Below are positions 16,866 through 54,760 of a stretch of DNA of 64,000 nucleotides, piece after piece; position 1 is the stretch's first letter, and every line of letters begins with the position of its first letter. Source of the DNA: Bigelowiella natans CCMP2755 (taxonomy: Eukaryota > Protista > Cercozoa); assembly GCA_000320545.1 (NCBI GenBank), contig ADNK01000002.1, forward strand, positions 1 through 64,000, given 5' to 3'. The notes under the pieces were generated by a model that worked only from the letters and a program-made list of their open reading frames with translations, was not told the origin of the DNA and searched no databases. The translations under genes and the position numbers were made by a program.

Positions 16866-17223
16866 TTTTAGCGGACTAGCGGTAGCTGTTTGGCTTTTGT
16901 GCGCGGGACTGTGCTGTTGATGTTGGAAAGTCAACACGCGGTCTCGTGTGCTTTTGGATTCTGATGATGACTTGTGACTTGCGCTGCACGCATGTGCGCA
17001 TTGGGTTCCGGCGCATTCGCGAAGATTCTCGAATCTTCCAGAATTCTCTCGAATTCTCTCGAGTGTTTCTGGAAGGTTCTCGAAGCTTCCGGAATGTTCT
17101 CGAAGATTCTGGAAGTTCTGAGAACTTCCATGCGCATGTGCGCAGCGCAGCGTGCAGCACGAGTGGACGTGCGCATGCTGCGACAGCTCCTTGATCGTGG
17201 GTGGCGCGGCCAGACCGCTGACA
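16866..17223 (-). repeat. Copia 3' LTR (358 bp)
   Basis: Matches 23592-23949 except for 5 substitutions in the terminal 27 bp. Confidence 0.95.
17016..17114. promoter_or_regulatory. Heat-shock element (nGAAn) arrays in the Copia LTR (second copy at 23742-23840)
   Basis: 6 in-register alternating TTC/GAA units at 17016-17043 and 10 units at 17067-17114. Confidence 0.75.
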
Positions 17224-21900: not shown

Positions 21901-23421
21901 TGGGTAGGATTTAAATCTTTGTGTTTTTGTACTTTTGTTTATTTGTTTATATCTCAAATAAAATAGGCCGTCGTCTTGAAAGTCCCCGAACGCGTATTCC
22001 TCTCCGTTGGCGGTAATGCTTATTCCTTGTTTTGTTCCTTTGTACTCGCTGCCACTCTTAACTAGTCTGTTTAGAGAAATCACATTGCCTGCAGCTTCTT
22101 CAGAGTACAAAGCTCCTTGTAGAACAATTTTGTGCATCTTTCCTTGCTTGTTTTTTGTAGTTAGTTTGACGTCGCCTGCATAATTCACAAAGAATCCTGT
22201 CCCATCTTTGCCAACTTCTATGTATCGTGGTTGAATAGGTTTCAACTCGTTGAAGAAGTCGCGGTCGCAGAAGAAGTGGTTGTTGGCTCCGCTGTCGAGA
22301 AGGATCAAAGGCTTATGGTTGTACTTCAGCGTTTGCAGGTAAGAATTGTCGCGTGCCATCTTATTAATGTAAGAGGGTCTTTGGGAAGGGGAGCCATGAT
22401 CAATAAAAGAATAGTGTTTTCCTTTGTTCTGCTTGCCTTCATCTCTCATCTTGTTTCTGCATTCCTTTTCCCAATGTCCTTTCTTGCCACAGTAATGGCA
22501 TTTTGTTCTTTTCTTTAAGTTCAAGAAATAGTCTTCTCTCTTTTGCTTCTTGGAATTGTCTTGATATGCTTCGCTGTTGTATCTGTTCTTTCCCTTTTTG
22601 AATTTCCTCTTGTAGGTCTTCAGCTGACCTGTAAGTTCGTTTAGCCTTTTCTCCAAGCCATCGTACATCTTCACGTATTTGTGTTCTGCACTGGTGTGTC
22701 CTGCATGTTTCTTTGAAGGTCTCTGCCCGTCATCTAATGATCGGGAGTTTATGTGGGAGCGGATCATGTCCACTGCAGAGTCGAAGGTAACATCTTTCTT
22801 GTTGTTGATGACTGTAACTATAGTCTCGTATTTTTCGCTAGGTACAAGTCCTCGAAGTAGAGTGGCAAGCGCTTGGTTGTCGGAGTACCCTTCGTGCTGT
22901 GCCCGAAGTCTTCTGATCGTCGAGTCAAGGTCAGAATGATACTTTGTGAAGTCTCCATTGTACTGACCCATGTTTATATCACTTAGTTTCGAATAAAGTT
23001 TCCTGACGGCTACAGGATTGGTAGGCTCGTACTTCTCCAGCAAGGCTGCTAAGGTAACTGCTACGTCTTTGGGTTTTCCTTCGAGTAGATCGAAGAATTT
23101 ATCAGGAAGGGTAGCAGTGAGGAAGAATCTTCCTCTCTTTCTTTTGTTTATCTTTTCTTGTGATCCTCTTCCTTCAGGTTTGGGATTGAGGATATCGAAT
23201 TGCTCCGGGGATAGCTTGAGTACTTCTCGTCGGTGAGCGGGGTCGGTGCGTACATTGACTTCTGTCACCTTTCCTTCTATTTCTATGTTGACATTGAAGC
23301 ATGATTCCAAATCCGCTGCTTCAAAGGCAGACATTAGCTTGTACATGTAGGGCTTGTAGTTGCTACCATCGTACTTGAGGGTGAAGTTTTTCAGCAGGGA
23401 GTCTATCTGCTTTTCTGACAT
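18979..23421 (-). CDS. Copia gag-pol polyprotein (1480 aa)
   Basis: Zn knuckle CHYCGKKGHWEKEC; protease LLDSGA; integrase H..H..CKAC, IHSD, RSDGGGEY, PEQNGMSER; RT KSRLVARGF, SIYGLTQA, FVDD; RNase H YVDASW, NPADILTK. IN-before-RT order defines Copia. Confidence 0.98.
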   Translation of the reverse strand: MSEKQIDSLLKNFTLKYDGSNYKPYMYKLMSAFEAADLESCFNVNIEIEGKVTEVNVRTDPAHRREVLKLSPEQFDILNPKPEGRGSQEKINKRKRGRFFLTATLPDKFFDLLEGKPKDVAVTLAALLEKYEPTNPVAVRKLYSKLSDINMGQYNGDFTKYHSDLDSTIRRLRAQHEGYSDNQALATLLRGLVPSEKYETIVTVINNKKDVTFDSAVDMIRSHINSRSLDDGQRPSKKHAGHTSAEHKYVKMYDGLEKRLNELTGQLKTYKRKFKKGKNRYNSEAYQDNSKKQKREDYFLNLKKRTKCHYCGKKGHWEKECRNKMRDEGKQNKGKHYSFIDHGSPSQRPSYINKMARDNSYLQTLKYNHKPLILLDSGANNHFFCDRDFFNELKPIQPRYIEVGKDGTGFFVNYAGDVKLTTKNKQGKMHKIVLQGALYSEEAAGNVISLNRLVKSGSEYKGTKQGISITANGEEYAFGDFQDDGLFYLRYKQINKSTKTQRFKSYPMKQPSSIKHAHNILGHIAADKIRDTYAVTEGLPYSKTIKIPKKIFCKACDVAKTKRSPIFDPSAQERMKQHRNKAKIEDDAVKKKQKCVPDIHKKNRMWNRIHSDVKTMPNSMDGYKYFVIFVHEGTRWVTLELMRKKSEVTQKTIQFLKHIRKLPGCGSIDEFRSDGGGEYMSAKLHSWLTSEGIKWVPSTARTPEQNGMSERHIQTIMAKTRAMLEHARLPVGYWSYAAQTAAYLHNVTSHRSTPGRKTPKELLHHEQPNLKNLTTWGCIGVNHIDKELRPAGGMGARGEYVRMLGYDDRFGTFLVATKTLKIKRVRVTKWYHTVFKFPSLKRNKVSDSALAYLYPEGPADADAPEPSSATDELPEDGGPETKAKSKPRRSNRENRGVPGIRYGILGSYYDRLMNIKAPSVQEIEDLPKTYDDAITGDDKKHWIPSTEEELHQLRKLGTFTLVVRPKDTNFVTSKWVFKKKINVDYTIRYKSRLVARGFTQIPGEDFFFSYSPTLSLNSFRIMLAIASILKLKLHGIDILTAFLTGKMDCKVYMEIPKGWKPKTPDEIRLYNSGLPLALLVNKSIYGLTQASAIFSLTLLEHLNAIGFVQLYSDPCLMIMHRQGRIIILSCFVDDICIAYQDKRDLDFVMKRIGDKFEFRDEGELKKTLGIRVGSDNEGNYWISQEDYLTRLAQKYDITPTKRAKTPMITGSKLDEYEEHDKVDQKAYRSIIGAAMYAAVATRPDICYTLSRLASYSQDPRTIHYIAAVRLLQYLVNTKDKRITFKAASKPELKAYVDASWKTCKKTGKSYSGYFISLSNAPVVWKSNKQKVVAMSSGEAEYIALSDICRELVYVTQLLQELKMKIPKPVPVYCDSQAAISIAAKPGFTQKGKNIRIEYHNVRDNYQTKQICINKIPGEDNPADILTKALPGPSNKKHCDFLFPISYREKLTIMLQGTRKRKITTKTLPYKLPRLVGPTSA

Positions 23422-23580
23422 GTTGTTTCGTTCCTGTTTTCTTTGTTTTCAGTGCTTTGGAGGCTTGACCGAAGATTGGCTGAGGGAATGCTGTTGTCGC
23501 TTTCAGTTCCTTCTTCTGGAAGGATGTAGCTGAAGGGGGGGGGTGGGGGGTTTGCTTGGTTCTTTTGCAAGTCCTCTTGA

Positions 23581-23591
23581 GGCTCATAACC
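23581..23591 (-). promoter_or_regulatory. Primer-binding site, half-tRNA-iMet type
   Basis: Minus strand GGTTATGAGCC directly after the 5' LTR resembles the GGTTATGGGCCC PBS of Drosophila copia. Confidence 0.8.
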
Positions 23592-23949
23592 TTTTAGAGG
23601 GCTTGCGGTAGCTGCTTAGCTTTTGTGCGCGGGACTGTGCTGTTGATGTTGGAAAGTCAACACGCGGTCTCGTGTGCTTTTGGATTCTGATGATGACTTG
23701 TGACTTGCGCTGCACGCATGTGCGCATTGGGTTCCGGCGCATTCGCGAAGATTCTCGAATCTTCCAGAATTCTCTCGAATTCTCTCGAGTGTTTCTGGAA
23801 GGTTCTCGAAGCTTCCGGAATGTTCTCGAAGATTCTGGAAGTTCTGAGAACTTCCATGCGCATGTGCGCAGCGCAGCGTGCAGCACGAGTGGACGTGCGC
23901 ATGCTGCGACAGCTCCTTGATCGTGGGTGGCGCGGCCAGACCGCTGACA
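23592..23949 (-). repeat. Copia 5' LTR (358 bp)
   Basis: Minus strand begins TGTCAGCGG and ends CTAAAA, immediately followed by the PBS. Confidence 0.95.
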
Positions 23950-24179
23950 CCTAGTGCTATAACAACACCATCGAACTAGCTCAGCTCATACAGCATGAAA
24001 TTGAACCATCATCATGCATGCATCGATCTTGGCGGGTAGCACCCGTCTACCCGTTAACGGCGCCCATCTGGACATAGCTAGATAGTTAGATAAATGCTAG
24101 AGTGCTACACTACGTACACTAGTACACATTGAATGCAGCTTGCTGCACAGACATTGCTATCTAGCTAGCAAGCTATGCC

Positions 24180-35621: not shown

Positions 35622-35682
<61 letters not shown>

Positions 35683-36895: not shown

Positions 36896-37487
36896 CGAAA
36901 GAATTCTGATTGAATGTGGATGCTGGGAGGCAAACTTTGAAAAACACATCAGAAATTTCAAGCTTCAAAAGATGAATGGCTTTGAGTTAAATTCACAAAA
37001 TGAAGTTGATCGCAAACATTTTTGATCCATCTTGTCACATCACAACATGGTGGACATTGGAACTTTGTGCAATGCTGCATTTGCACAATTGATGCTCTGC
37101 TGCAATGTTCATGTTGGATGGCGCATGCACGCGCATGTTTCGTTCACGCACTTGAAGCATTGCATTGTGATCGAACGGTGGCAGCGGAAAGTGTGCGCAG
37201 CAGGGCTAGAGGGAATGGCAGCGGCAGCAGCAATGGCAAACGATCAGATGTGTGCAATGATGAGGGTGGTTGGGACAAGTTCACTCACGCTAGCACGTGC
37301 TGTCTAGCTGTGCACGGCGGGCGAAACTGGGAGAGAGTGGGCTGCGCTGGTTGCACACGAGCTGTGGGCGAGGTTGCAGCGCCGCACTCGCGCTTACGCG
37401 CTCCATGCTCATTTTGTGCCGCTCAACGCAAAGTTGCCGCCATCACGAAAATGCATGTTTCCTTCTTTTGTGCGAACGTGCTGGCTA

Positions 37488-38035
37488 CAAGGGTTTCTCA
37501 CTCCCCTGGAATCCCGGCAGGCATGCGCGGATTCCACTCCAAACTTTCACACATGACCCCTGTGGACCATGTGAGGGCCCTAGGACCCTCAGGGAAGCAA
37601 AAAAAAATGTTTTTTGGAAAATCGAAAATGGGCAGGGCACAAACTTTGAGTGCTCCGGAAACGCCCCTGACTTCGCCTCCTTCCACAAAAACCATGCCAA
37701 AGTGACAGGTGCAAAAAGATCTTTCTTCTCTCAAATTTTCACAACTCAAAACACAAAATTGAACATTTCCGGAGCAAAATTGCGCGCGCAGGCACAATTT
37801 TTTGCAGTTTGTGGCAGGCGCAGCGAGGCGCAGCGCGGCGCAGCGGGCTCACCAGTTCATTTTTCACTGGTCAAAATTGGCACATTTCTTCTGAAATGAT
37901 TCACAGTTTCAAAATGACATGTTCAAATTCGACAGCGAGTGATGAACGAAGAAAAAGTGAGCCACGATGCACACGCGCATGGTGCATGCGTGTGTGTGTG
38001 CACGTGTGTGTGTGTGTGTGTGTTGTGTGTGCATG

Positions 38036-38069
<34 letters not shown>

Positions 38070-38108
38070 ATGTGTGTGTGTGTGCATGTGTGCATGTGTG
38101 TGTGTGTG

Positions 38109-38145
<37 letters not shown>

Positions 38146-38785
38146 GTGTGTTGTGTGTGTTGTGTGTGAACATGCAATCAAACACCACGATGCCAGCTCT
38201 GGAGGGTTGTGTGTTCCGGATCTGCACATGCATCTTGTGTGGTCAGCACACAGGCATGACTGCATGGCACACATCCTTCAAACCATCCTCCTTGCAGCTT
38301 CTCCTGATGTGACGCCATTCGTCCTTGGCAACCGAGAACGTTGCCTCAAGTTCTCCCCAAGGACATGTCTTCCCGTCCAGCCTCCTCGTCACATGTCCCC
38401 AACCGCACTTTGGCAGAGAAATCACACTGTCGTGTGCAACCACGACTCCGTTGTGTTCATGATGCACCCTCACATGACTCCCGTTCTTCAACACAAAATT
38501 CTCTGAATTTGACATGAGGGAAAGAGGGCAAGGAAGGTTGGTGTGGTGTGCTGGGGTTGGCCCCAATGAGCTCGTGTGAAAAAAAGTTGCGAGCGTCACC
38601 AGAGATTTCACGTCAATTTCGGCCAAAGAAATCCATGGATGTTCACACATGAAATTCGATTTTTCACAAGGAAATCTTCGTTTTTGGTTCAAATCCTGAA
38701 AAAAATTTCGGCTGCCGCCGAAATGAGGCACACCTTGAAAGTCCGCGCATCCCTGCCGGGATTCCCGGGGAGTGAGAAACCCTTG
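37488..38785. mobile_element. Non-autonomous hAT-type DNA transposon (~1.3 kb)
   Basis: ~45-bp TIRs CAAGGGTTTCTCACTCCCC(T/G)GGAATCCCGGCAGG(C/G)ATGCGCGGA; 8-bp TSD GCTGGCTA (37480-37487 and 38786-38793); no transposase. Confidence 0.88.
37984..38168. repeat. Interrupted (TG)n microsatellite inside the hAT element
   Basis: TG run with CA interruptions and no TA. Confidence 0.9.
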
Positions 38786-39239
38786 GCTGGCTAGCTAGCG
38801 AACTGAACGTGACGCAGAAAGGTTTCTTTGTGCAGGCTAGCAGGGTGCAGGGGTGCGCGAACGATGATGGACACATCTGATATGGACATTGAAATTCATT
38901 GAATCGTTTTCAATGAACGTTTCAGCTCGAATGTTCCATTGATGGAAATGTTGTCCATCATCAGGTTCATTCATCGTTCATTGGGCCTGAGAGAGATTCG
39001 AGGAGCGTCATCGTTGTTGATTGGTGATGCCGTTTGTACTTTGCGACATATGATATTGTGATGTCTCAGGGCAGAAATCGGTCTATTGTGTTGTCAGTCA
39101 GTTAGTCGCGACATAGAGTAGTAAGTAATAACTGTCGTAGACAAGGGAGGGATAATAAGAAGAGGAGGAATCCGAAAGATTCAAGAATCGAATACGACCA
39201 GCGTACGAAGAGGAGGAGGAGGAGGACACTCGGAGGAAT

Positions 39240-40483
39240 ATGAAGGCGGACACAGTAGTCCACGTACTACGAAGGCGTGTGATCCTTTTGTAGGCTTGAG
39301 AGTGTCAAAAACCAACAAAGGAAGAGCTTAGAAATTTCCAAAGCAGTCTCTCATAGGAACCTCAGGCACGTCTCTGCATATCCCTTGAGGGATTTGATCA
39401 AGTGCGATTCTTCGAATCAAGAAAATAATTGAGTAGCTTCCTGATACGAACGAACGAACGAATCATGCAAAGCAATCAGGCTGCTGTCTCAACCGGTGAA
39501 AGGGAGATTGAGCCCTCTGAATTGATGACGAGCTACTCATTCAAAGACAGCGATCTAATTCCTGGTGTCGTCTAACAATCAACGATTCTTCACGAAATCG
39601 TTAGAATAATTTGTAATTGTTGATCAGAAAAACCACTGTCTAGACTCGATGTTCCGAGGAATAGATCAGTGTCAAGAAATCAAGAATCCTACATGTATTC
39701 ATTCATCAGAACTTATTATTATTAATACCACCTCTCAACAAAATCAATCCACACACTACATTCTGCAACTGCATTAGGTCTGAAAATACCATTGGAAATG
39801 ACTTGGATAAAAGTAGAGGGTATTTTCTTTCGTTTGAAACGTATTCATTGCTAGCTCATCGGAAACACCATTAAATTCTCCTCCAACAACATTTTTCAAA
39901 ACATGAAGCGGGACTTTAAATATGGGCTCGGTCTCAACGATTGACGTGCCAGATCAAGTACTACGAATGAGTTCAATAATCGTTGATTACAAATGAATGG
40001 TCATTGCATCTTGTAATGAGTCCTTACTACACGCAGATGATGGAATTAGATGATCCAGAAAATGGAAACGATGGTTTGAGGACCCCTCCACTTCAAACAC
40101 CACCGTACGTCGTAGAATTATATTTGCGGTGCAATTGATTGTTGAGCTGGATACTTCCTCTTTGTTAAATTGCAATGCGTCAATGAATGCTTCATTAGCT
40201 TGAGTAAGTTGTGCCGATTTAGATTGTATTTGAATAGTAATAATAATTTCACACAGTAATGAGCCGGAAGATATAGAAGCAGATCTTAAAATCATACTTT
40301 CAAAAAGAGCGTCGGTATTGGATCCATCTCAGGGTAGAAATAGTCATAGTGGACGTAGACTGCTGCTACTACTATGAACAAGTTATAATTATGAAATGTA
40401 AGCACAATATGTTTATCATATGATCTATCTAGATATCTACCACAAACATAAACATAAAACACACAGACACGTTTGTTCTTTTA

Positions 40484-40525
<42 letters not shown>

Positions 40526-43032
40526 ACATCCACACATATACAAATTTAAACAGATACTAATAATTATACAAACTTCCCAACAATCGAACAAAGTGATAGC
40601 ATATTCCACAGAACTTTTGCGTATTTGATTGCAAAGAGGATGAGATGAAGGTAACCCATGCGTGTTTGATTGCAAAGAGGAAGAGATAAAGTTGCTACTA
40701 GAAGACATGCCGGACTTGATTGACGATGAAGAAACTAAAGTGAACCAGGAAATGAAGGCATTTCGAGAGAGAAATGTTGAGAAAGCAAAAAATCTGCAAG
40801 ATGAAGTAAAGCAAGAATCTTTGAAGGAGCTTCAAGCTATGGAGGATGAAAGCTTAAACGCAAGGCTTAAGAGCATCGAGATTGCAAAAAGATTAAGTGA
40901 TGCAGCAAGGTAGTAATATCAACACGAGAGGCATACAAGTACAATAACAGTTGAATTGGAGAAAGGGAGAAGACTTGGGAATGCACAATAATACTGTGAT
41001 GATGGCAGGAAAGAAAGGGTGTCTGAAGAGAAAGATATTATTAAAATGTCAAACGAATATCGACGAAAAAGTATAATTGAAGCTATCGAGGCCGCAAATA
41101 CGGCAAGGTGTTTAGCATGGCTAGGTTTATTTGCGTAGAAGAAGAGGAAACACTGTATACAGGGTCTGTTGTTTCGGTTGTGATGAATGTGAATGATGTT
41201 GTGCAAAAGTAGTATCAACACAATATATAAGACGCTACTATAGGTTGGAATGACATTCCGTAGGAAAGGAAACACCTCAGTCTCTTTTCATGCCTTTATA
41301 CCTACTAATATTCATGGGCGGGATTCTGTTCACTGTCGCAGACGAGAAAGGAAAATGGAACATGTTAAGTGCGATGAAGAGAGTCGCAATGAGAGGAAAC
41401 TAAACCAAACAAAAGTGAAAGATCTGTATGAGTTAGCGAGGTAACTATTATAGTTAAAAACCTGAGAAAAAAACACTGTGAGTACCGTACCCCAAATCAT
41501 CATAGAGTGTTCAGCAAATAGCTAAAGTCAAATCGATACAGTGTTATGGTACCTTGCAAGTAATCTGATATAATATGACCGATGATGAATATTTCTTTTT
41601 TCTGGTATTTTTGATATTTTCGACACTAAAAAGGAATGAACGCTTAAGTGAAATCAAGAAAAACGGAATTGAAACCTTGAAGAGCAGACGTAATAGTATT
41701 CTCGAAGCTAAACGTCTCTATCAACAAGCTGTTATTGAGGTTGTACGTGTAATTTGTAGACAGTAAAGGGGAGAGATGCCTCATAAATTGGATAGTGAAG
41801 TAGAGCTGCTGCCGCAACATGTAATTATGATATCGATCTATGGCTACTGGTTCGGTTGGCTGCAGCTAATTGCTTCATACTCTCCGTTGATGTCGTCTCT
41901 TCTTTTGTCTTATCATCCCTTAGAACCAAGCTGAAAGAGAATATATCGACAGAGCTAATGCCAAAAATAGGTCAAACAGCATTGAGAAAGCCAAGAAACT
42001 TGCAGAAATAGCTCTGGAAGAAATAATTGTGGAACGAAAAAACGCAAGAAAAGCCGAACTTCAATATAAGGAATTATCAATAAAAAAGGCTATAGATGCT
42101 GTTTATACAGAACAAAGAAGACGAATAAATTCCCCGGTCAGTCAATCTCTTAGACATTTTTTCTGGAAAGAAGAAGAAGAAGAAGAAGAAGAAGAAGAAG
42201 AGGAAGAAAAAGAAGAAGGAGAAGAACGACAACCCTCTCAAATGTTGAGGATATGAATAAATATAAGGATATTTGGCTCAAATTTAGCTCTAAACCTAGT
42301 TATAACAGGAAGAAGAAAAGATTCGAAATAGGAGCGCTACATTCATTTGTGAGGAGGTAACAACATCTAAACATTATCCATCCATACGTTATCCATTTAC
42401 ACACATATCCATCAAAAATTAAAACAATATATCCAAGCAGGCACTTCGCTGCTATTAGTTACTGTGATGATTGAAACTTACTGTTCCTTATATGGATTGG
42501 CTAATACGGAGGAAGAGGAGGGGGAGGAAGAATCTTCAAAATAACAGATATGCAAAGCCTCATCACATTTATTGATAAAAAAAGGTTAACAGATTATTGG
42601 AACACGTCACCACTACAACTACTACTACTACTACTACCGTTGTCAATAATGACGACGAGGACCCTGCTGCTGAAAGCTGCATAAAATCGTCTGATGTACC
42701 TGTATCAGTGAAAATACTTCTCGAGGTATACATCATATCGTAGTTGATCAACACAAAAAAAAATTAAAACAATTGAGCTATTTACATCTACACCAATCTA
42801 AAAATAATTTCTTATTCTCCTTACGTTTCCTGACCAGATGTTGCTCTGAGCTCTGTCAATTTCAATACTTTTCCCATACTCTTCATCACCACGTCATCGT
42901 AAATCGTTTTTCTTATATCTTGTCATTTGCACAAAGACCTCGAAGAAACTTCCAATGTCACCTCGGAAATTCAAATACAAATTCGGTATTACAGTTACAT
43001 ATGAACACATTCACACATACCCACGCGCGTAT

Positions 43033-43125
<93 letters not shown>

Positions 43126-43355
43126 CACAGTTTCTTCTAAAACTACTGACTTTGGTTCTCGTATAGTATTCTAGATTCTTACACGTTCTAACCTCCCGTA
43201 TTGGAAAGAAATAATATTTTGATCATAATGGTGTTTGTAAAGCTACGGGGAGTCCAAAAAGTAACGAAGATGAAAAGGGGAAGATAACAGATAGTAACAA
43301 TGCTGACGATAATTTAGACATGGATTCGTTGTGGGACGATAAGGTTGTATTCTAG
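39240..43355 (+). CDS. Hypothetical coiled-coil protein, multi-exon (start uncertain)
   Basis: E/K/R-rich helical exons near 40670-40910, 41340-41440, 41630-41740 and 41925-42135; acidic last exon ends ..DSLWDDKVVF with TAG at 43353-43355. Confidence 0.55.
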
Positions 43356-44029
43356 ATGATGTGCAATGCGTTTAATCTATATTTCAGATTCTCTTTTTCC
43401 TGTGCAACCATGACGCGCTGCTACTTGAACACTAATATTCAACGACTGTCTCTTAATGCTGGTGATGTTTCCAGATTGACACTTCCAGTCTTCCGCCTTC
43501 AGTATGCCCCGATGACATCGTGCAAGATAGGATGAATCAATACTTACATGATGACGAAGATGTACCTGGACACCCAACGCTCCCCATGTAGGTTTCAATT
43601 TGGAGTAGTCATTTTCAAATTAACCCACACATACACATATATAAATAGATAAATATAATTTGTGGAGTTTCCATTTGAGGCAAACGACCACTACGATTTT
43701 GCACGGAGCAATGACATTGCAATTGGAGTTGTTGCCACTTTTGACATTTTTTTTTGTTGTTCAAAAAATCTGAAATTCAGGCCACTTCCACGCGTCTGCA
43801 AGAGAGGATGTGCCGTGTTTTTTTTCCGATGAAAGTGTGCTTAACTTTGAGGTGCCATTATAGACATGAGAGGGTTACATGGTTTTTGAGGCAAACTAGC
43901 AAAGTTACGTGACCTAATCAAGTAGCCACATGACCTGATCTCCAAAAGCCACGTGGTTCACACATGTGATGCAACATGCACATGCATTCCATGCATGTGA
44001 CATTGCTGTGTCTATCATTGACAGCTACA

Positions 44030-45110
44030 GAGCTGGATGCATGAGTTGTGCCCAACAGTGCACATCATTTGCCATTTGACACATCAACCTGGTGCTGAGG
44101 CCACCGCCATGCTTGCATGATGGACGTGTGATGCGCATCAGGACTAGAGAAGAGCACACACGCAGCACACACATTGCTGAAAGCATCGCCGCAGATTCTT
44201 GCAGTTGCAATGCCAGAATGTGCTGCAGCACTTTCATCTCATTTCTGGCACTTTGTGTGACACAGACTTTCTGCAACACTGTGGATTGTGTCGCTCCACA
44301 TCGCGTCGTGAATGAACGAACAAGCAATGCAAAATTCCAAGGCGCTGCAGCCAAACAAAGGTTGAACATTGTCCTTCATGTTGATGCTCCCATGTTCGCG
44401 CAAGTTTGACATGCATGCAGTCGACATGTGAGCGAGCATGGACTGAGGAAATTGGCAAATTGACTGTGCACGTTGTGGCAGGTGAAGCGGCACAGGTGCG
44501 ACAAGCATTGCCGTGACGCTTCAGCCTGCCGCGACAAGGAATGCACACGCATGTCGCGCGACAAGGCTGGTCCTTGTCGCGGCCTAGAAACCCAATGCAA
44601 TTGCATGTGACTGATGACAAGCTTGACATCTGTCAAGGGGCGGTCAAGCTCTTGCACGATGTCATCACAGTTCAACCTGAACACCGCTGCCCACTCGTTT
44701 GCCACCTTTTGCTCACTGCGCGCACATCGCACCGCACCCAGCCCCTCAATTGTGGACACGATCTCAATGCTTCACATCGGTGCTGCTCTGACTGCACGCA
44801 CACGCGAGAACCACGTGGGAGACAAGCGCTTCCATCACGTGCGTGCAGCAGCGCCTGCAAGCAAAAACTCTTTGCGCGAGGACTTCTGGAACTTCACAGC
44901 ATGACAACACCCTGCCAATGCTGATGTGTCATGATGGACACAGCAACAGCATGTCCATCATTGTTGCCAAAACTCAGCCAAGCAGAGTGATTGGTTTGAC
45001 GGAGCACGTGCACCAGCTGACAAGTGGAGCCATTGCGAATCGAAGAGGGACGCATTCAAGATTCAAGATTCGTGTTCGTTCGACCACTTGAAGTTCATCA
45101 AACAAACGTG
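44030..45110 (-). pseudogene. Decayed, hypermutated retroelement-like remnant
   Basis: Tyr-free, Cys/His-rich frames. Segment KEFLLAGAAA..KRLSPTWFSR (~44800-44880) resembles the sequence flanking the Gypsy insertion (46650-46680 and 52396 onward). Family not identified. Confidence 0.4.
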
Positions 45111-45129
45111 ATGACAGACTGGCCTGACT

Positions 45130-45710
45130 TGGGAACAATGAGAACAATGATGAAAAACTGCACTTTCAAAGTGTGACAAGACACTTGCAGTGTGTCGAAC
45201 TGGCTTCAGTGAGGACTGAAAACTGAGCCTCGAACTGACTTTGGTGGGCTGGTGAGAACTGACCAGTGAAACAAAAAGGAATGAAGAATGGCATCACTCC
45301 AGCCACTCCTCCTCCATTCCTAGCTTCATTGTCTTTTGTGCCTGATCTCGGGAACAATGAACAATGATGAACAATGAACAATGAACAATGATGACGAACC
45401 ACACTTCCAAAGTGTTGCAAGACGTTTGCAGTGATCGAAGTGCAGTGCCTCGAACTGGCTTCAGTGAGGACTGTGACCAGCAAATCAACTGGCTGGTTTT
45501 TCAAGTTGGCATGATTTGGTCATTGTGTTGCAATGACACTGTGAACAATGAACAATGATGACGAACTGCGTTCCAAAACGTTGCAAGACACTTGCAGTGA
45601 TCGAAATGCAGTGCCTCGAACTGGCTTCAGTGAGGACTGTGACTGGCGGCAAATCAACTGGCTGGTTTTTCAAGTTGGCATGATTTGGTCATTGTGTTGC
45701 AATGACACTG
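45130..45710. repeat. Diverged ~180-bp tandem repeat with AACAATG runs
   Basis: Units share CTTGCAGTG..TCGAACTGGCTTCAGTGAGGACTG and CAAATCAACTGGCTGGTTTTTCAAGTTGGC; partial copies at 52500-52600. Confidence 0.85.
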
Positions 45711-46560
45711 GCGGCAAAGTTCTGACGGCGCAAGACCTCCACTCTGAGCAAAAACTTCCTGAAGGCCATGTCCACACGACGATCTGCGTTTGGATCATCC
45801 GAGGGGGGCCCCAGCAAAACTTTGGTTTTGGCAGAGTCCGGAGCGTCAAAGAGTGAAGAGCAGAAGGAAGAATCTGGGCCCAGAGCCAATCTCATGCGCG
45901 AGAGAAGTTTGTTTCTCTCTGCATTCAAGTGAGTGCAATGATGGATGAGGTGGTTGACAGTTTGAACAACCTCAGCATTGCAAAGAGGACAAACTGAGGA
46001 AGAGGGGGGCAGGTTGCAAGTTTCAGCCCTGCGTTCTTCAGTTTCGCAAGTCCCAGCGCGGAGCCGGAGTTTGAGCAACACTCCTGAATTGTCATGCCAA
46101 TCATCGAGATGACACTCAAACAATCTGGAAGCTGGCCTTCCAATGTGGCTCTTCGCCCAGGCTCTGAGTTTGCAGATTGGGGTGTCGGGTTTGACGAACG
46201 AGCAAAAGCTGTGACACAAGTTGCCATTGGAGGACAGAGAGGCCCTGACTCTTCGGTGGAGGTCAAGATCAACCAATTTTGGATGGGTCTGGTCCAAGTT
46301 GACCAACACGTCAAAGCCACGGGCAGATTGGCCACAACCAGCAATGCGGTGAAGAATGGACCCAGTGTTGTGACCCCAACTTGAGCGCAGAGCGTCAGCC
46401 TGATCCAGAGAAAGGTGCAGTGGATCCTTTGTCATGAATTCATCAGGTTGCTGACGCATCCTGCTCAGGAGGCTCATGAGAGACTTGTCCCAACGGGCCT
46501 GCAGACCTTCCTGGCCACACTCAGACAATGGGAAGCACAGGGGTTGGCCATGGGCTCGAA
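45710..46560 (-). pseudogene. 3' part of a decayed non-LTR (LINE) ORF2
   Basis: Post-RT-like segment SECGQEGLQARWD..., KLRLRAG and CCHC finger CPLCNAEVVQTVNHLIHHC; no Tyr in 311 codons. Confidence 0.7.
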
Positions 46561-46680
46561 TTCTGATGAACAATGAACAATGAACAATGAACAATGATGA
46601 TGATGAACAATGAACAATGAACAATGAAGAAAGCGTTGATCAAAACCACGTGCGCCAGAACCACATGGGAGACAGGCATT

Positions 46681-47006
46681 TGTAGCGCGTACCACTACGC
46701 GGGCACAAGTCACGTGCGACAACAAAGGGGTTGTCGCGGATATAGAATATAGATAACGTAGATATTAATACAGCATAGGCACGTGGGTTCCGGCGGGACT
46801 CATGGCAGCACACCGGAAGTGTGCTGCCCCACGTGCGGCGGCATTCGCGAAAGCTTCGCGAATGATTACGCAGTGCACGATTTAATAAAAATATAATCTT
46901 TAATAAAAATAAACACAACTCTTCAAAAGGAAGCAAACGTGCCTTTCCCCCCCCCTGCCTACTTGTGCACGTAGCGCCTCGGCCTGTGAACACCTTACGC
47001 GCAACA
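46681..47006 (+). repeat. Gypsy 5' LTR
   Basis: TGTAGCGCG...CGCGCAACA; identical to 52070-52395 by eye. Confidence 0.95.
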
Positions 47007-47045
47007 ACCTTTGGCTTCCACACACGGGAAACGATTTGACTAACA

Positions 47046-48227
47046 ATGTCACAGCAGCTAGAAGAACAGCAGGACTTTGGCTCGCAGGCCGTGCAAGGGC
47101 ACGAGCAGAAACAGGAAAGGAAGGGCGATACGGACGCTAAGGAAGGAGGAGGAACACCTCCACAGGCACCGCCGGGACCAGCACCCGGGATTAAGAAAGC
47201 AGATGCAGCAGCAGAGGCACTGGAGAACTTCTACGAGGCGGACGACGAGGACGTGGCCGCCGAAAGCAAGAAGGTCGTAATGGCATTACGAGCCTTGCGA
47301 CCCAGGGCGAGCAACTACGCCAAACTGAAAGTATCGATAGAATACAAGTATCAGACACATGATGTTTGGGCAGCTATCATGCAGGACATCATGGATTACG
47401 AAGCAGACTTACCTCCAGAGTGGGCAGCTTTGTTTAGGAACGACGGGGGTCTGGGCGCCTCGCGGGGGACGACCCAGAGCACCGTCAAGCAGCAGCAGCC
47501 GGTACAGCGGAACACCCAGTTCATGTCTGTTAAAACAGCACCGGTTATGATAACGAAATACAACGGGAAAAGAGGTGAGGCAAGGAGGTGGTGGAAGAAC
47601 GCTAGGAGTATACTCTGCGACTTTACCCCTAACCCCACCGAAAACGACAAGCTCAAATGGCTAGCTATAATAAAGCAAGCCATGGACCTTTACGAGACAG
47701 GCAGGACCCGGATCAGGCAGCTAGAGAAAATACACACTACAGTTAGTGGGCTACGAGACGTTGAGGCGATAATGAAGGCTTTTGTAAATGAACAGGATGC
47801 TAACTCCCTACCCCAGGCTATTAGAAAATACAGAGCAATGATGCAGCATGAGAGAGAACCTGTTAGAGACTTTGCCACGCGCTTCCAGGATATGATCGAC
47901 GAACTACATGATTTTAATTACAACACAGGTGATGATCAGGCAAGGTTTGAAGAGTTCAAGTTAAAGATAAAGGAATCCACTTACGTTACGGAGAAAGGCT
48001 ACACCACGATGGAGGCAGCAGTGCAGGCTATATCCCTACGCGAGCAGGAGCAGGACCGCAAGTTTACCAGCCCTAAGGTACCTGGCATAGGAAACATTAA
48101 CGCTATTAAGCCGCAGCGAGACTGGTACAAGGACAGGGAAGGTAACCGACGTTGCGGATACTGCTCACGTAAAGGGAAACACACCGCTAAGACTGCAGAG
48201 ACAGGAAAGAAGGACGACCCAGGATGA
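47046..48227 (+). CDS. gag: Gypsy Gag
   Basis: Capsid-like MHR-type segment QHEREPVRDFATRF; partial Zn knuckle CGYC..H near the end. Confidence 0.85.
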   Translation: MSQQLEEQQDFGSQAVQGHEQKQERKGDTDAKEGGGTPPQAPPGPAPGIKKADAAAEALENFYEADDEDVAAESKKVVMALRALRPRASNYAKLKVSIEYKYQTHDVWAAIMQDIMDYEADLPPEWAALFRNDGGLGASRGTTQSTVKQQQPVQRNTQFMSVKTAPVMITKYNGKRGEARRWWKNARSILCDFTPNPTENDKLKWLAIIKQAMDLYETGRTRIRQLEKIHTTVSGLRDVEAIMKAFVNEQDANSLPQAIRKYRAMMQHEREPVRDFATRFQDMIDELHDFNYNTGDDQARFEEFKLKIKESTYVTEKGYTTMEAAVQAISLREQEQDRKFTSPKVPGIGNINAIKPQRDWYKDREGNRRCGYCSRKGKHTAKTAETGKKDDPG

Positions 48228-51200
48228 CGATCAGGCAGCTCAACGAACACTACGAGAAGTTAAAGAGAAAGAAAGGCAGAGGACAAGGATATAACAACAG
48301 CAAATGGCAAGGCAGCAACAACGGGAAGAACAATAAATATAAGAACAAAAAGCAGAACAGTATCAATGCTATACAGCAGCAGATAAACGGAATATTAGAT
48401 CACCTTAAGCAGGCGCCGACGAAGACAGCAGTACCAGCAACGCAGGACCAAGACAAGCCCATGACCCTAGACGACATAAAGAACTTAGGAGTATGCAACA
48501 TTAATGACGAAGACGCTAACAGGACTATCAAAGTTGCTATGACCAAGGTTAAAGTTAAAGACAGCTACGGAGACTACAAGAAACTACCTGCCCTTTGGGA
48601 TAGTGGCAGCATGCCGAAGTCCTTCATAAGCCTAAGCACAGTAAGAAGGTTAGGACTATTGGATCAAGTGACTAAGAAAGAACGTAAATATGCTCAAGCA
48701 GACGGAAGCTCTTCCATGAAGACCGTCGGTGAGCTAATGCTAAAGCTACAGATACCTGGCAGCGACGCGGAGACCCAAATCAAGACCCGAGTAGCCATGA
48801 CTTTATCCATGGAACTACTCCTCGGACAGGATGCCCTAGAAAAATTAGGGGGGATCATATCATTCTACAATCACAAGATATACTTTGCTAAGTTGCCAAA
48901 GAAGTCAGGCAGGACCATCAGCCAGAACATGATACGGCTTGACGAGTGGACCTCTGAGTCAAGCGTTAATGCGTTAGAGTTTATGGACCTAGCGGACAAC
49001 AAGCTACCTACACCTACCGAGCTACGGAAGAAGAACCCCGGCAAGACCATCCGACAGATAACGGAGCTACTGGACAAGACCCCCCCAGCTGATGATTGGG
49101 ATATCGACAAAGGCAAAAAGTACATTAATAAAATATTAAACGAGAAGTACTCTGACATCACCAAGCCGACGACGAAGCCCTCCAGCAAGCTTACCCCAGT
49201 AAAGATCGAGCTAAAGAAGGGATACGAAGAGTGCATCATCAATGACCCAGAACATAGGCGACCGGAAGCGGACTGGGAAAAGATAGAGTGGCAGATCAAT
49301 GAATGGGCAAAGGAAGGGAAGATAGAGCCAAGCAACTCACCATGGAACGTGAGACATGTGCTAGCTAAGAAACCTACTTACCCTTTCTTCCGCCTGGCGC
49401 ACAACTTCATCCGCCACAACCGAGTAATAAAGAGGATCCAGACACCTACACCAAGGATAGATGACGTTATTGAACACGTCATAGGATACAAATACTACTC
49501 TTCCCTAGATAAAAATGAATCATACATGCAGACACCCATCCACAAAACCTCCCGCCCCATTACCGCGTTCTCCAGCAGGCACAGGAAGTGGCACTTCGTC
49601 GTATTCCCTTACGGCCTAAGCATATCAGGGGATGCGTTCAGTAGTCAGAACTACAGGGCATACACACATGATGGGATGGCGTCTGTGTTGTGGGTGTTTG
49701 TGTTTGTGTATGTGGATGATGACATAATATGTACCAACACAGTCGTCGCTCAGATCTTCCTCCTGGAAAATATATTTATTAGGTTTGCACACTTCGGTTT
49801 TACTATTAGACTGCAGAAGTGTACATTCCTAGCTACAAGAATCAAGTGGTGTGGATATTACCTGGAGCAAGGCCGCATCACCCCAAACCCCGAGAAAGTA
49901 GCAGCACTACAGCAAGCCCCTAAACCTAAGAATGCAAAGGAGTTAAAGTCATTCTTGCAGACTGCAGCTTGGATACTACGTAGGTTCTCCCCTACCTACG
50001 CTAGGACTGCAGCTGCTTTTACTACTGCTTACCGGAAGGAGAACTCTGTAGGCCTCAGCTTCGCTAAGGTGTGGGCCAAGGCTGGCCTTGATGCCCACTT
50101 CGATAACCTAATAAAGTTATGCAGCAACACCCTATTGAATGCTAAGCTAGACACTACTAGACCAGCTACCCTATGGACAGACTGGTCTAAGCTAGGTATG
50201 GCTGCTGTACTTACCCAAGACCAGCAGATCATACGGGTGTGGGGCAGGGCCTGCACAGCAGCTGAGGCCAAGTACAGCCCTACAAAAGGAGAGTATAAAG
50301 CCATGACTGAGGCGCAGAGGAAACTAAGATACTACCTGCTGTCGGTGCCCAGCTTCACCTTAATGACTGACCACAAGCCCCTCCTAGGCATCGACCGCAA
50401 GCTCGAAGCGCCTAACGATGAGTATGCAGCTATGAGGGCGGACACGGAAGAGTTTAGGGACAAGAGGACAGTGGTCTACGCACCAGGAGACAAGCAGCTT
50501 GCTGACTATTTCAGCAGGCTGTTCGAAAAGAAAGTCCCTACCCAGGTCACCCCTAGGGTTAACGCGATTACCTTCGAGGACGGCGACTTCCTGCCTGAGC
50601 CAGAGGAGCTCCAGCACCTTCAAGAACACCTGGATAAATACAAACACAAGCATGAGGTACTTAGTGATAGGATATATGTATACACTAATAATGTTAGGCG
50701 TACCTACGTGCCACGGCGGACCAGGGGAGCCCTTCTCTTTACCGCCCATGGACCTGCACACGTAGGAGAAAACCATATCACTGCTCTACTCTACCATTAC
50801 TACTGGCCCTACAAGCTAAAAGAGATAAGGACATACCTGCGTGGCTGCAGGTGCTCCAGCTTGAAGGCGGCAGGCGTCGCCACCAAGGAGTCCAGCAAGA
50901 GCCGTGCATCTAAGAAAATCAAAGCAAGGAACTTCTTAGATATCGTGCAAATTGATGTTTATAAGTACGATGGCTATCACTACCTTACCTTCGTTGATGT
51001 GGCCACTGGAAAGTGCTGGGTTAAAAAGATTATCAAGGTCAACGTTGCTAAGAAGAACAAAGGCTTATATAAGCAGAGGCTTACTAACTGCTACCGTACC
51101 TGGGAGTCTGAGCTCCAGGCTATCCCTGATGAAGTTAGCATAAACAAGATACCAAAGAAGTTACATGTGGATAATGAGACCTCTCTTCTACAGCTACCAC

Positions 51201-52018
51201 ACCCTAATATTGATGCCTCACCTGTATACTATGCCCAGTCCAACTCCAAGGTAGAGCGACTCCACCGCACCTTGGCCAACCTAAGCAGGATAAATAGCAC
51301 CACACCAGACAAGATACAAGGGTTAGTAAACGACACCTTCACGTCTGGGGGAGGTATCAAGGATAAGGAGAGGGAAGAAGGCGACGACAACGACGACGAT
51401 ACCGAGAGCGAAGACGAGAAGGTCCCGTACGATGGCCGAGTTCTAAAGGAAGGACAGTATGTTAGGGCCAAGGTAAATCTGAGATCGAGAAATAAACAAG
51501 ACCCCTTCTGGGGTGGCGTTGCAAAGGTTACCGAGAGGAAGGGGAGGAAGCAGTACTACATCTATGATGGGAACAGGGTCACCTTGCGCCACATCAGTCA
51601 CCTAAAGAATTATGATATCGGTGAGAAGCTCCTAGAGGATGTTAAAGTAAACCCTACTGTGTGGGAGCGAGCAATGCCTTGTTTAGGACCCCGACCTAAG
51701 TTCGATGTGGAATATGGAAACAATAAGGTCAGGGTGAACGACGATTGGCGCATGAAGATTGTCTATCTAGGCTACCCTGGATTACGAAATATGGAGAGGG
51801 TAGCTATGAAAATAAAGGACGGAAAATATCAGCTACTCTACCTAGCTGTTCCCGACTTACCCTTTGAGCACTGGTATAAGGTCCTGGGGGACCTTGATGC
51901 AGAGGGCTGGTATGGACACGAACCTAAGGACGAAGGTGAGTTCTGGGTAAGCGACAAAGGAGATAAGGTTAGAGAGGAATCTATTACCTGGTGGTTGGTG
52001 AAGTTCCGAAAGCGATGA
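48191..52018 (+). CDS. pol: Gypsy Pol (PR-RT-RNase H-IN plus extra C-terminal domain)
   Basis: ALWDSGS; SPWN; FPYGL; YVDD; LWTDWS; TDHKPL; integrase IVQID..VDNE..SNSKVERLHRT. The frame opens at 48191 after a TAA; first ATG is at 48224. Confidence 0.95.
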   Translation, partial: DCRDRKEGRPRMTIRQLNEHYEKLKRKKGRGQGYNNSKWQGSNNGKNNKYKNKKQNSINAIQQQINGILDHLKQAPTKTAVPATQDQDKPMTLDDIKNLGVCNINDEDANRTIKVAMTKVKVKDSYGDYKKLPALWDSGSMPKSFISLSTVRRLGLLDQVTKKERKYAQADGSSSMKTVGELMLKLQIPGSDAETQIKTRVAMTLSMELLLGQDALEKLGGIISFYNHKIYFAKLPKKSGRTISQNMIRLDEWTSESSVNALEFMDLADNKLPTPTELRKKNPGKTIRQITELLDKTPPADDWDIDKGKKYINKILNEKYSDITKPTTKPSSKLTPVKIELKKGYEECIINDPEHRRPEADWEKIEWQINEWAKEGKIEPSNSPWNVRHVLAKKPTYPFFRLAHNFIRHNRVIKRIQTPTPRIDDVIEHVIGYKYYSSLDKNESYMQTPIHKTSRPITAFSSRHRKWHFVVFPYGLSISGDAFSSQNYRAYTHDGMASVLWVFVFVYVDDDIICTNTVVAQIFLLENIFIRFAHFGFTIRLQKCTFLATRIKWCGYYLEQGRITPNPEKVAALQQAPKPKNAKELKSFLQTAAWILRRFSPTYARTAAAFTTAYRKENSVGLSFAKVWAKAGLDAHFDNLIKLCSNTLLNAKLDTTRPATLWTDWSKLGMAAVLTQDQQIIRVWGRACTAAEAKYSPTKGEYKAMTEAQRKLRYYLLSVPSFTLMTDHKPLLGIDRKLEAPNDEYAAMRADTEEFRDKRTVVYAPGDKQLADYFSRLFEKKVPTQVTPRVNAITFEDGDFLPEPEELQHLQEHLDKYKHKHEVLSDRIYVYTNNVRRTYVPRRTRGALLFTAHGPAHVGENHITALLYHYYWPYKLKEIRTYLRGCRCSSLKAAGVATKESSKSRASKKIKARNFLDIVQIDVYKYDGYHYLTFVDVATGKCWVKKIIKVNVAKKNKGLYKQRLTNCYRTWESELQAIPDEVSINKIPKKLHVDNETSLLQLPHPNIDASPVYYAQSNSKVERLHRTLANLSRINSTTPDKIQGLVNDTFTSGGGIKDKEREEGDDNDDDTESEDEKVPYDGRVLKEGQYVRAKVNLRSRNKQDPFWGGVAKVTERKGRKQYYIYDGNRVTLRHISHLKNYDIGEKLLEDVKVNPTVWERAMPCLGPRPKFDVEYGNNKVRVNDDWRMKIVYLGYPGLRNMERVAMKIKDGKYQLLYLAVPDLPFEHWYKVLGDLDAEGWYGHEPKDEGEFWVSDKGDKVREESITWWLVKFRKR

Positions 52019-52069
52019 AGGTCTAAGGGAATAAGGAAGGAAGGAAGGAGCAACGTGACTTGGGGGAGG

Positions 52070-52395
52070 TGTAGCGCGTACCACTACGCGGGCACAAGTC
52101 ACGTGCGACAACAAAGGGGTTGTCGCGGATATAGAATATAGATAACGTAGATATTAATACAGCATAGGCACGTGGGTTCCGGCGGGACTCATGGCAGCAC
52201 ACCGGAAGTGTGCTGCCCCACGTGCGGCGGCATTCGCGAAAGCTTCGCGAATGATTACGCAGTGCACGATTTAATAAAAATATAATCTTTAATAAAAATA
52301 AACACAACTCTTCAAAAGGAAGCAAACGTGCCTTTCCCCCCCCCTGCCTACTTGTGCACGTAGCGCCTCGGCCTGTGAACACCTTACGCGCAACA
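52070..52395 (+). repeat. Gypsy 3' LTR
   Basis: Follows the PPT; identical to the 5' LTR by eye. Confidence 0.95.
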
Positions 52396-52838
52396 CATTT
52401 GCACGCAGCAGAGCCTCAACAACACTCGTTGCAAGGACTTGTCAGCACCCTGTTGGTGAGAGACACAAAAAATCAGCCGCATCCCATGAAATTGGCATGA
52501 AACAATGAAACAATGAAACAATGATGAAAAACTACATTTCCAAAGTTTTGCAAGACACTGGCATGGATGATGATGAACTGCGTTTCCAAAATGTCGGAAT
52601 GTGAGTGACTTGTGAATCTGAAACAGATTCATGGAGCTCAAGAATGCGACATGAATGTGTGAATGACGCACAACACAATTGGGGTCCTGTTTGTGAATCG
52701 ATTCATGGAGCTTAAGAATGCGACATGAATGTGTGCCTGACGCACATCACAATTGGACTGATGTTTACCACTACGACTCATTTGAGCCCGGTGAAGGAAG
52801 AAGGGTAGTTACATAAGACTCGAAACCTCCATTCTCCC

Positions 52839-53114: not shown

Positions 53115-53726
53115 GGTAGGAAGTCTGTGGTGCTCAATTCTGAAGCTTGGCTCGAATTTTGCAAAGAAAGGGAGATACTAAAGACCAAAAGCGACGAGCA
53201 GGTGCAGGATTATGGAGACTCCGATAGCGATGAGGAAGAAGCTGACCGAAAAAATAGAAATGAGGTTTAAAAAAATGATCCGGAATCTTCGATTACCTTT
53301 GACATAGTTGTCTTATTAGGGAAGGAAATCCATAGTGATGGACGCAAAGGCATGGGAAGAGCATGCAAAAAAGATTAAGAAAATGTTAGATGATGCAGAA
53401 AAGAAAAATGAAGTATTTGATGGCGGAGATTCCAATGGCAGCAGTGGAGATTTTCAAAAGGTGCTACTTAATGATTTCATTCTCCATTTACTAAAGAGAT
53501 GTTGTAATATTCAGCGTCAGGTAGTTACAATGGATTCATCAAAATCACAGACAAATTCAAGTACGCTTCAAAGCGATGCCAAAGTGGAGGTAAGAATTAT
53601 ATTTAGTAACACTTAGCCGTGAGGGACTTTAATTTCAAGTCAGATCCAATCTGTAGTTTGTTTCACTTTCTTTCCTATTCTTGTCAGAATTTTGGAGAAG
53701 ACAGTGATGAAGATGAAGACGACTGA
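53115..53726 (+). CDS. Small acidic hypothetical protein with internal repeat, multi-exon (5' end not found)
   Basis: Two exons begin with related motifs GRKSVVLNSEAWLEFCK and GRKSIVMDAKAWEEHAK; ends NFGEDSDEDEDD with TGA at 53724-53726. Confidence 0.5.
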
Positions 53727-54760
53727 TAGCGAGCATTAGGCGTAGATGGGGATGATTGCCACTAGCCATGTTGCTGCACCGACAGGATGCTTTAACAAAA
53801 CATCGGGTGCCGACAATGTGTGATCATGGAGGTGATAATATCCAGCTACTTCTGATGCGATGATTTAGACTTTCACTTGCTAGCTTGTACGCGTTATAAA
53901 CAGCTGCGATGGCTAGTTTGTACGTTATGCGTATCAAGATGTCGTAGGCGGCGTTCTCGATCGTATATCCCATGATCACGATCGATCGCTAGATCGATCA
54001 ACACGGCTCGCATATCGCAATAAAAGCAGCTGGGCTACACATCAAGACATGCACATATGCACAACGTAGCCGCTGCTCGCGCATATATAGCTAGCTTCGT
54101 AGCTACATTACTAGATTAGGGTGACGTACTATTGAAAGAATGCAATCATTTCATTACTCCATCTCATGTAACTGTTATTGCTAGCGCCAACAATGTCCAT
54201 GACTACTAGACTAGATAAGGCGGATCGGATGTAAACGACTGTGTGAATTTTTTATTTTTAAATGTCATCGTGATGTACGTACTAGCTAAGATGCGTCTAT
54301 GACTATGGTCCATACATGTCATGTGATAGAAAATTATGTAAATTATAATATTTATGTATATTATATAGCATGTATATACATGCTACATGGTATATAAAAG
54401 TATATTACGACGAGATAGTATTACGTACGTCTTGCGGTGACACAAATAAATCAACTCCAACATGTATTATGCCAGCTTGTATTCCTAGATTTTAACTTTA
54501 CAAATACATATAATAACGATACTCATTCACCGTGAGATACAATCAAAAGAAGCTTAGTTCGCTTGAATCTCTGAGTTCTGTGTTCCCATGGCTATTCGTC
54601 AATGATTCTACAGAGCGATACTCATCCAACTAGAATAGAATGATTATGTAACCCAAATGTTCCTAATGAACTCCTTTAACTTCGTTCTATGTTCAATACC
54701 GCAAGGTCTTTGTTTATCCTTCTTACTATTACAAGTGTGGGTTCATAACAACGTATTTCT

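Follow-up and report, generated by a model that had tools for sequence, protein, structure and literature searches.

Two stretches of Bigelowiella natans CCMP2755 DNA, both within the first 64,000 bp of contig ADNK01000002.1 (GenBank assembly GCA_000320545.1; this 64,000 bp is referred to below as the window), are old mobile-element DNA that has been stripped of nearly all of its TA dinucleotide steps, and in them the tetramer CTAG is retained at near-normal density in spite of an approximately 70-fold loss of all other TA. Domain 1 (36989-38880) contains a non-autonomous hAT-like element and domain 2 (44027-46680) is part of a long interspersed nuclear element (LINE). The two domains are probably the end-state of a TA to CA/TG hypermutation process that has already been described for this species (Mettrop et al., 10.64898/2026.01.13.699255). 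The exemption of CTAG is a new and testable detail of that process, and it is likely to reflect a sequence preference of the mutator.

Loss of TA and gain of CA and TG

The window contains 4348 TA steps, and 162 of these are in CTAG. The four kilobases 37001-38000, 38001-39000, 44001-45000 and 45001-46000 contain only 6, 4, 4 and 1 TA where 60, 62, 56 and 68 are expected (15 against 246 when pooled), and the longest runs that are entirely free of TA are 1362, 1211, 736 and 635 bp long. CA plus TG is in 1.7-fold excess (315 against 181 expected in one domain and 573 against 334 in the other), and the GC fraction is about 0.50 in the domains and about 0.39 in their surroundings. The sizes of the TA deficit, the CA/TG gain and the GC rise match, and thus they are what a change of TA to CA or TG should leave behind, the direction of that change being deduced and not observed. 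Depletion in the cores is limited to TA among the dinucleotides (rho is 1.23 for AA, 1.04 for GA and 1.65 for CA). Domain 2 has 285 TG and 283 CA, and the two are interleaved, so both strands appear to have been mutated alike; a strand-patch test of the domains found neither TG-rich nor CA-rich patches, and so no sign of a processive mode that acts on one strand. In 44027-46680 the sequence switches between TG and CA more frequently than it would at random (331 runs, 285 expected, z +3.9; control stretches gave z -3.5 to +0.5), and these may be former TATA-like runs that have become CATG or TGCA.

The four kilobases all fall in the TpA-poor, CpA+TpG-rich class of the Mettrop et al. preprint, with TpA and CpA+TpG values of 0.10 and 1.62 (37001-38000), 0.06 and 1.84 (38001-39000), 0.07 and 1.92 (44001-45000), and 0.01 and 1.63 (45001-46000). 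A cluster in that work is at least three consecutive such windows, and those found here form two runs of two; 46001-47000 falls outside the class (rho CA+TG 1.40), since part of it is the young LTR (long terminal repeat) of an inserted gypsy element. The domains described here may therefore be absent from the 124 clusters of the preprint.

Residual TA sites are concentrated in CTAG

A complete listing of the TA steps in 37021-38880 shows that seven of nine are CTAG (TA at 37207, 37291, 37305, 37581, 38792, 38796 and 38838), the others being TTAC (37395) and CTAC (37486), and that all three in 44030-46680 are CTAG (TA at 44145, 44585 and 45321). Both counts are those given by an earlier reading made from the sequence alone (below, the sequence-only reading), which had in addition attributed one of the two exceptions to the junction of the hAT-like element; the TA at 37486 did indeed read CTAG before that insertion, and the 8 bp duplication GCTGGCTA flanks the element. 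Counts inside and outside low-TA DNA, which cover the 64 kb window, likewise show that residual TA is concentrated in CTAG. Seven low-TA stretches (6783 bp in all) have CTAG at 12 of their 28 TA, against 150 of 4309 outside them (Fisher p 9e-11). Two measures that involve no segmentation agree: CTAG accounts for 11 of the 31 TA that have no more than four other TA within 150 bp (3.7% overall), and for 5 of the 14 that are isolated by 60 bp on each side (P 1e-4). The density of CTAG itself is about equal inside and outside (1.77 and 2.62 per kb), and it has thus been spared rather than enriched.

The deepest TA-free DNA (4917 bp) retains 15 TA, of which 10 are CTAG. If no loss had occurred 12.9 CTAG would be expected there, whereas only 5 of about 358 other TA remain: 2 of 131.4 expected half-sites (CTAH and DTAG), 1 of 18.0 TTAA and 2 of 208.3 for the rest. 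The YTAR tetramers other than CTAG have been erased as well (1 of 48.7 left, with 0 of 30.7 for CTAA plus TTAG and the single TTAA above), although a pyrimidine precedes the T in all 15 survivors (baseline 0.449, P 6e-6). Could the surviving CTAG sites simply be TA made anew? CCAG plus CTGG make up 48 of the 1072 CA/TG present, so about 4.5% of the TA created by ordinary transitions should be CTAG, not 67%, and new formation cannot explain the survivors. From these counts the mutation rate of CTAG would be about 17-fold below that of other TA (at least about 3-fold), an estimate that assumes ancestral DNA with the average tetramer densities of the window. A further insertion site of the hAT-like element has a flank of 30 letters with two TA, and both are CTAG.

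The DNA that carries the two domains

The features discussed are collected in Table 1. The 316-residue open frame in domain 2 has 70 relatives at E<=1e-3 and aligns to the last 150-275 residues of proteins of 1118 to 1225 amino acids that have RVT_1 and Exo_endo_phos_2 domains (its own zf-RVT match is weak, E 0.066). This homology to the second open reading frame (ORF2) of elements with an endonuclease and a reverse transcriptase identifies domain 2 as a LINE, of which the window holds the tail alone. The closest relatives are B. natans gene models in EukProt, and three of these paralogs (P0122, P0123 and P0192) also lack tyrosine. Environmental-assembly relatives have Tyr where the window has His or Cys (residues 35, 90, 119, 233, 235 and 260); among the relatives examined, with the matched part of P0126 left out, those that have Tyr and are thus apparently unmutated (P0124, P0129, P0193 and P0131) come from short environmental-assembly contigs. 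We conclude from these replacements that domain 2 is a mutated LINE tail. No unmutated copy of either domain was found by a self-blastn comparison of the window, which returned LTR pairs and local repeats only, and tblastn of eight queries (the proteins of the copia and gypsy elements plus five further frames) against the window gave no match in the domains. A Pfam search with seven frames of both domains gave nothing above threshold. The metagenome DNA that encodes the LINE relatives aligned too variably to be used, and two further scans confirmed no locus.

Table 1. Positions of the mobile elements, low-TA domains and CTAG-rich stretches in the window
Feature	Coordinates	Strand	Remarks
Copia-type LTR retrotransposon	16866..23950	-	LTRs 359 bp, 98.6% identical; target-site duplication CCTAG
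CTAG-rich intergenic DNA, TA normal	23951..24165		Continuous with 16595-16865 before copia insertion
Left flank, domain 1	36989..37487		Single-copy, TA-free-like; 5 TA (rho TA 0.18): CTAG 37206, 37290, 37304; TTAC 37395; CTAC 37486 (made by target-site duplication)
Non-autonomous hAT-like element (MITE)	37488..38785		1298 bp; one TA, CTAG 37580
Right flank, domain 1	38786..38880		3 TA, all CTAG: 38791, 38795, 38837
Domain 2, non-LTR (LINE) remnant, repeated 3' region	44027..46680	-	3 TA, all CTAG: 44144, 44584, 45320
LINE ORF2 C-terminal tail, 316-aa open frame	45689..46639	-	No tyrosine
Gypsy-type LTR retrotransposon in domain 2	46681..52395	+	LTRs 326 bp, 100% identical; target-site duplication CATT
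Domain 2 continuation past gypsy	52396..52766		TA-poor; survivors CTAC, TTAA, TTAC
Second CTAG-rich intergenic stretch, TA normal	53762..54282		10 CTAG among 81 TA in 53600-54400

The element in domain 1 is a miniature inverted-repeat transposable element (MITE) whose ends are 44-nt inverted repeats that are 95% complementary. Terminal inverted repeats together with an 8 bp target-site duplication (37480-37487 and 38786-38793) are the marks of the hAT superfamily, and we call it hAT-like on the strength of its ends and duplication; its frames gave no match in a Pfam search. Read contigs from three DNA runs were mapped to the left half of domain 1 (the MITE query was 37488-37975, with depth to about 37903). 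The single-copy flank is represented by one contig per run that spans 35700-37517 with 0 differences, a result of limited reach as there are almost no TA targets there and contigs drop rare variants. The word depth of the MITE contigs exceeds that of the flank 3- to 23-fold and several distinct flanks meet at 37488, from which it follows that the genome has multiple copies of the MITE. From 37488 to about 37903 the other copies lack TA as well, with two exceptions: at 37795 about 40% of the contig depth has ATAA where the window has ACAA, and at 37630 about 10% has ATAG where the window has ATGG. Every contig differs from the window at position 37780. RNA reads cover the MITE at low depth, and none lie within 37068-37447 of the flank.

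Since the copies elsewhere are TA-free, the MITE was apparently TA-free before it spread, and its insertion into DNA that had already lost its TA would account for the surviving CTAC at the left duplication. The idea that domain 1 was mutated in place thus fails for 1298 of its 1892 bp, which are a repeated and already TA-free element that was inserted later. The single-copy flank that remains has six CTAG in 594 bp, and may be a native CTAG cluster from which all other TA has been lost. An open frame of 423 codons adjoins domain 1 at 35624-36895; it has no Pfam match and very little RNA, and TA is half depleted in 36001-37000 (rho 0.52). This frame may be a partly mutated gene or element.

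Such inherited TA-free copies raise the question of whether any local mutation need be assumed. The domains might instead belong to sequence classes that are natively TA-free through selection or inheritance, in which CTAG is a functional motif. The TA-free state of the other MITE copies is in keeping with this, as is the copia element of the window, whose two LTRs are identical over their 340 bp TA-free part, so that TA-free sequence was propagated as such. Such an explanation is nevertheless most improbable in our judgment: the LINE tail has relatives with Tyr at positions where it has His or Cys, the CA/TG excess matches the TA deficit, the process has been observed live in the species (10.64898/2026.01.13.699255), and inherited TA-free copies would still require an origin.

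Why is CTAG spared?

The explanation that we favor, and to which we give about an even chance, is that CTAG is spared by a four-base specificity of the mutator itself; the exemption would then lie with the enzyme and not with the DNA. Such a mutator would read the base two positions before its target A and the base that follows this A, and its rate would drop with C at the former and with G at the latter, the two together giving near-immunity. Each strand of an NTAN site offers its own A and flanks, and only in CTAG do both strands read C-T-A-G. As CTAG is its own reverse complement, both strands would be slow at once.

The exemption seems to require both flanks. The sequence-only reading had proposed that the mutator avoids the CTAG palindrome, with a disfavored TA followed by G as one possible reason; a TA to CA/TG process that spares CTAG is supported, but "TA then G" as the sole rule has little support. 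Under a rule of that kind the mutator simply could not use an A that is followed by G, and CTAG, as the one tetramer with TAG on both strands, is correctly predicted to be the only fully protected one. Half-sites would then be left with one strand that is immune, and should outlast the rest by a wide margin (about 13 would be expected); a rule that depends solely on the preceding C makes this prediction too. The survival found is equal in the two classes (above); this comparison counts against single-flank rules only if erasure is unsaturated, as after saturation the models are indistinguishable. Where TA is sparse, TAG is present on one strand at 11 of the 20 sites other than CTAG, compared with an expectation of about 37%, which leans toward the rule but weakly (estimated p about 0.1).

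Individual changes bear on the same question. Comparison of the LINE tail with its Tyr-bearing relatives gave 14 uniquely inferable TA changes among 143 single-base differences; of those at half-sites five are on an A followed by G and three on an A after CT, and the Tyr codons, in which both outcomes are visible, are divided 2 to 1. These paralog comparisons suggest that mutations occurred on either strand. The five on an A followed by G, which are CTAH to CCAH changes at residues 37, 73, 119, 233 and 283, speak against the single-flank rule, as does a non-unique Ile to Met change at residue 291, which is also a change at an A followed by G. Two further cases, ATAG in the minority MITE copies and ATGG in the window at 37630, and TTAG and TTGG in the copia LTR pair, are best read as TAG to TGG. 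Finally, CAG/CTG and CCA/TGG are equally enriched (1.73 and 1.69-fold). We consider it very improbable that a single flank is the whole rule.

Several observations weigh against a four-base specificity. The deep TA-free DNA supplies only 10 CTAG, and six of these are in two tight groups beside the MITE. Native CTAG clusters reach about 25 per kb in normal intergenic DNA, and so the number of CTAG to be expected is uncertain. The GC-rich triplets CGC and GCC, which the process cannot produce, are 2.7 to 3.0-fold enriched inside the domains, and the ancestral DNA was therefore unlike the rest of the window; a test for products of the process from tetramer and triplet composition was discarded as unreliable because of this atypical ancestor. 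The changes derived from paralogs are noisy: they rest on an assumed direction, several would show up for just one of the outcomes, and one of them (Arg to Gly at residue 93, after a codon that ends in CT) would be a lost CTAG. We know of no enzyme that carries out TpA hypermutation. The published adenosine deaminases that prefer TA favor UAG and do not avoid it (PMC4817773), and amphioxus ADAT2, the model for the candidate of the preprint, prefers GAA on DNA (PMC10354150).

The same survivors would result if a mutator that acts on TA in general were blocked at CTAG because this sequence is chemically marked in the duplex (by N6-methyladenine or cytosine methylation) or is occupied by a protein. 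Because CTAG is palindromic, a four-base specificity and a mark or factor that reads the duplex are not separable by sequence alone, and a four-base rule applied strand by strand yields identical survivors. The erasure of half-sites, by which the whole palindrome seems to be needed, fits a mark or a bound factor, and a factor that recognizes CTAG is conceivable, given that normal intergenic DNA has clusters of this tetramer, frequently as GCTAGC. Palindromic N6-methyladenine motifs (CANNNNNNTG and TGCA) are present in giant viruses that infect this alga, and thus methylation of this kind does occur in the system (10.1101/2025.11.19.688996); CTAG is not reported as a modified motif in the available text of that work, which concerns viral DNA and not host DNA. 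Occupancy is also difficult to reconcile with domain 2, where the three CTAG are isolated in dead LINE DNA, an unlikely site for a bound factor. We regard a blocking mark or factor as unlikely, and favor a four-base specificity over a protective mark. The stronger form of the idea, that CTAG is a protected word in nuclear DNA, in which both adenines or cytosines are modified or from which a mutator that reads the duplex is excluded, appears to us quite unlikely; if it were true, this would be a eukaryotic mutational genome defense with an exempt site like that of restriction-modification.

Alternatively, the mutator might target CTAG too, with the mismatch there being efficiently reverted by a sequence-specific repair that resembles very-short-patch repair. 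Sequence-specific mismatch repair is known in bacteria, where Vsr acts at CTWGG, and repair of this sort predicts the same survivors. There is no evidence for it in the window, however, and the known example removes CTAG instead of keeping it. We know of no such CTAG-repair enzyme in this alga, and hold the idea to be very improbable.

Other features of the window

The copia element (Table 1) has TA-poor LTRs (rho 0.17) and 450 bp of TA-poor DNA beside its 3' LTR (rho 0.07), whereas its 1489-residue frame is intact with a normal TA content (rho 0.88). All five differences between the LTRs lie within about 28 nt at one end, which is the sole part that contains TA. Hypermutation of the 3' end of the parent element before retrotransposition would fit these observations. 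The gypsy element has a TA content above expectation (rho 1.13, 397 TA); either it postdates the last bout of hypermutation or it is not a target.

CTAG had also been reported as conspicuous in partly TA-depleted gaps near 24070-24170 and 53760-54290. These gaps are indeed rich in CTAG (6 of 28 and 10 of 81 TA), but are not depleted in TA (rho 1.01 and 1.13), and both are native CTAG clusters. Clusters of this kind, often in the form GCTAGC and with normal TA content, are found at 16595-16865 with 23951-24165, at 53762-54282, at 2587-2776 and at 6242-6445. Once the copia element is taken out, the first of these packs about 12 CTAG into about 480 bp, a density ten times as high as the average of the window. 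Elsewhere, a tandem array of a 56 bp unit, the copies of which are about 99% identical, occupies 12541-12988 in an AT-rich stretch, and 3885-6062 holds a CTP synthase frame, 87% of which aligns to jgi/Bigna1/51407 at 97% identity, the next-best match being 64% identical and from another chlorarachniophyte; the window is accordingly from B. natans or a close relative.

Relationship to known systems

A literature search found the process described in the Mettrop et al. preprint only, and no paper that ties CTAG to it. These authors report TpA to CpA/TpG hypermutation in living cultures of B. natans mutation-accumulation lines: 230 of 231 hypermutations were A>G or T>C, the GC-biased changes were all on TpA, and an integrated giant virus and a virophage mutated at a rate of about 6e-7 per site per generation, with the process confined to certain regions (10.64898/2026.01.13.699255). 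The two hypermutable regions still have 6169 and 2300 TpA. They found genome-wide TpA-poor, CpA+TpG-rich clusters (the 124 above), with reverse transcriptases among the enriched domains. The main text of the preprint gives no rule beyond TpA, and the terms CTAG, context, flanking and palindrom occur in it 0 times. The domains described here probably arose through that process: the organism is the same or nearly so, TA has become CA or TG on either strand, and both the TpA-low, CpA+TpG-high signature and the association with DNA that is foreign or mobile, reverse-transcriptase genes among it, are shared. They differ in being at an end-state without targets, and in being carried by a LINE tail and a MITE rather than by viral inserts.

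Fungal repeat-induced point mutation (RIP) likewise acts regionally on mobile DNA, where it causes transitions at one particular dinucleotide and skews the dinucleotide spectrum, but it turns CpA into TpA, and so makes TA and lowers GC, whereas in the process here TA is lost and GC increases (the Discussion of 10.64898/2026.01.13.699255 states these features of RIP). The RIP signature of C to T at CpA, TpA excess and a drop in GC was accordingly rejected for the two domains, which have almost no TpA, an excess of CpA/TpG and an elevated GC.

A-to-I editing by ADAR or by fungal enzymes of the tRNA-deaminase type is similar in that A is changed to G with a strong preference for U/T before the A, and the depletion of TA alone in the domains agrees with this preference. 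These editors prefer UAG (UAA too in Fusarium) and act on RNA (PMC4817773), whereas in the domains it is the A of CTAG that is left unchanged, and the mutations are fixed in DNA, equally on both strands. With UAG among the best substrates CTAG should be lost, yet it is the surviving class; TAG after bases other than C is erased, and the misfit is thus specific to C-T-A-G. Amphioxus BjADAT2 belongs to the candidate class of the preprint and deaminates A in DNA, but the contexts reported for it on DNA, GAA when A is the target and TCG when C is, show neither a preference for TA nor an avoidance of CTAG (PMC10354150).

Implications

The four-base exemption offers a concrete fingerprint that candidate enzymes should reproduce, and it is a poor fit to editors of the ADAR and tRNA-deaminase types, both of which like UAG. 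The MITE family and the copia LTRs show that sequence stripped of TA can keep spreading, and this spread suggests that the end-state of the process is immune to the defense.

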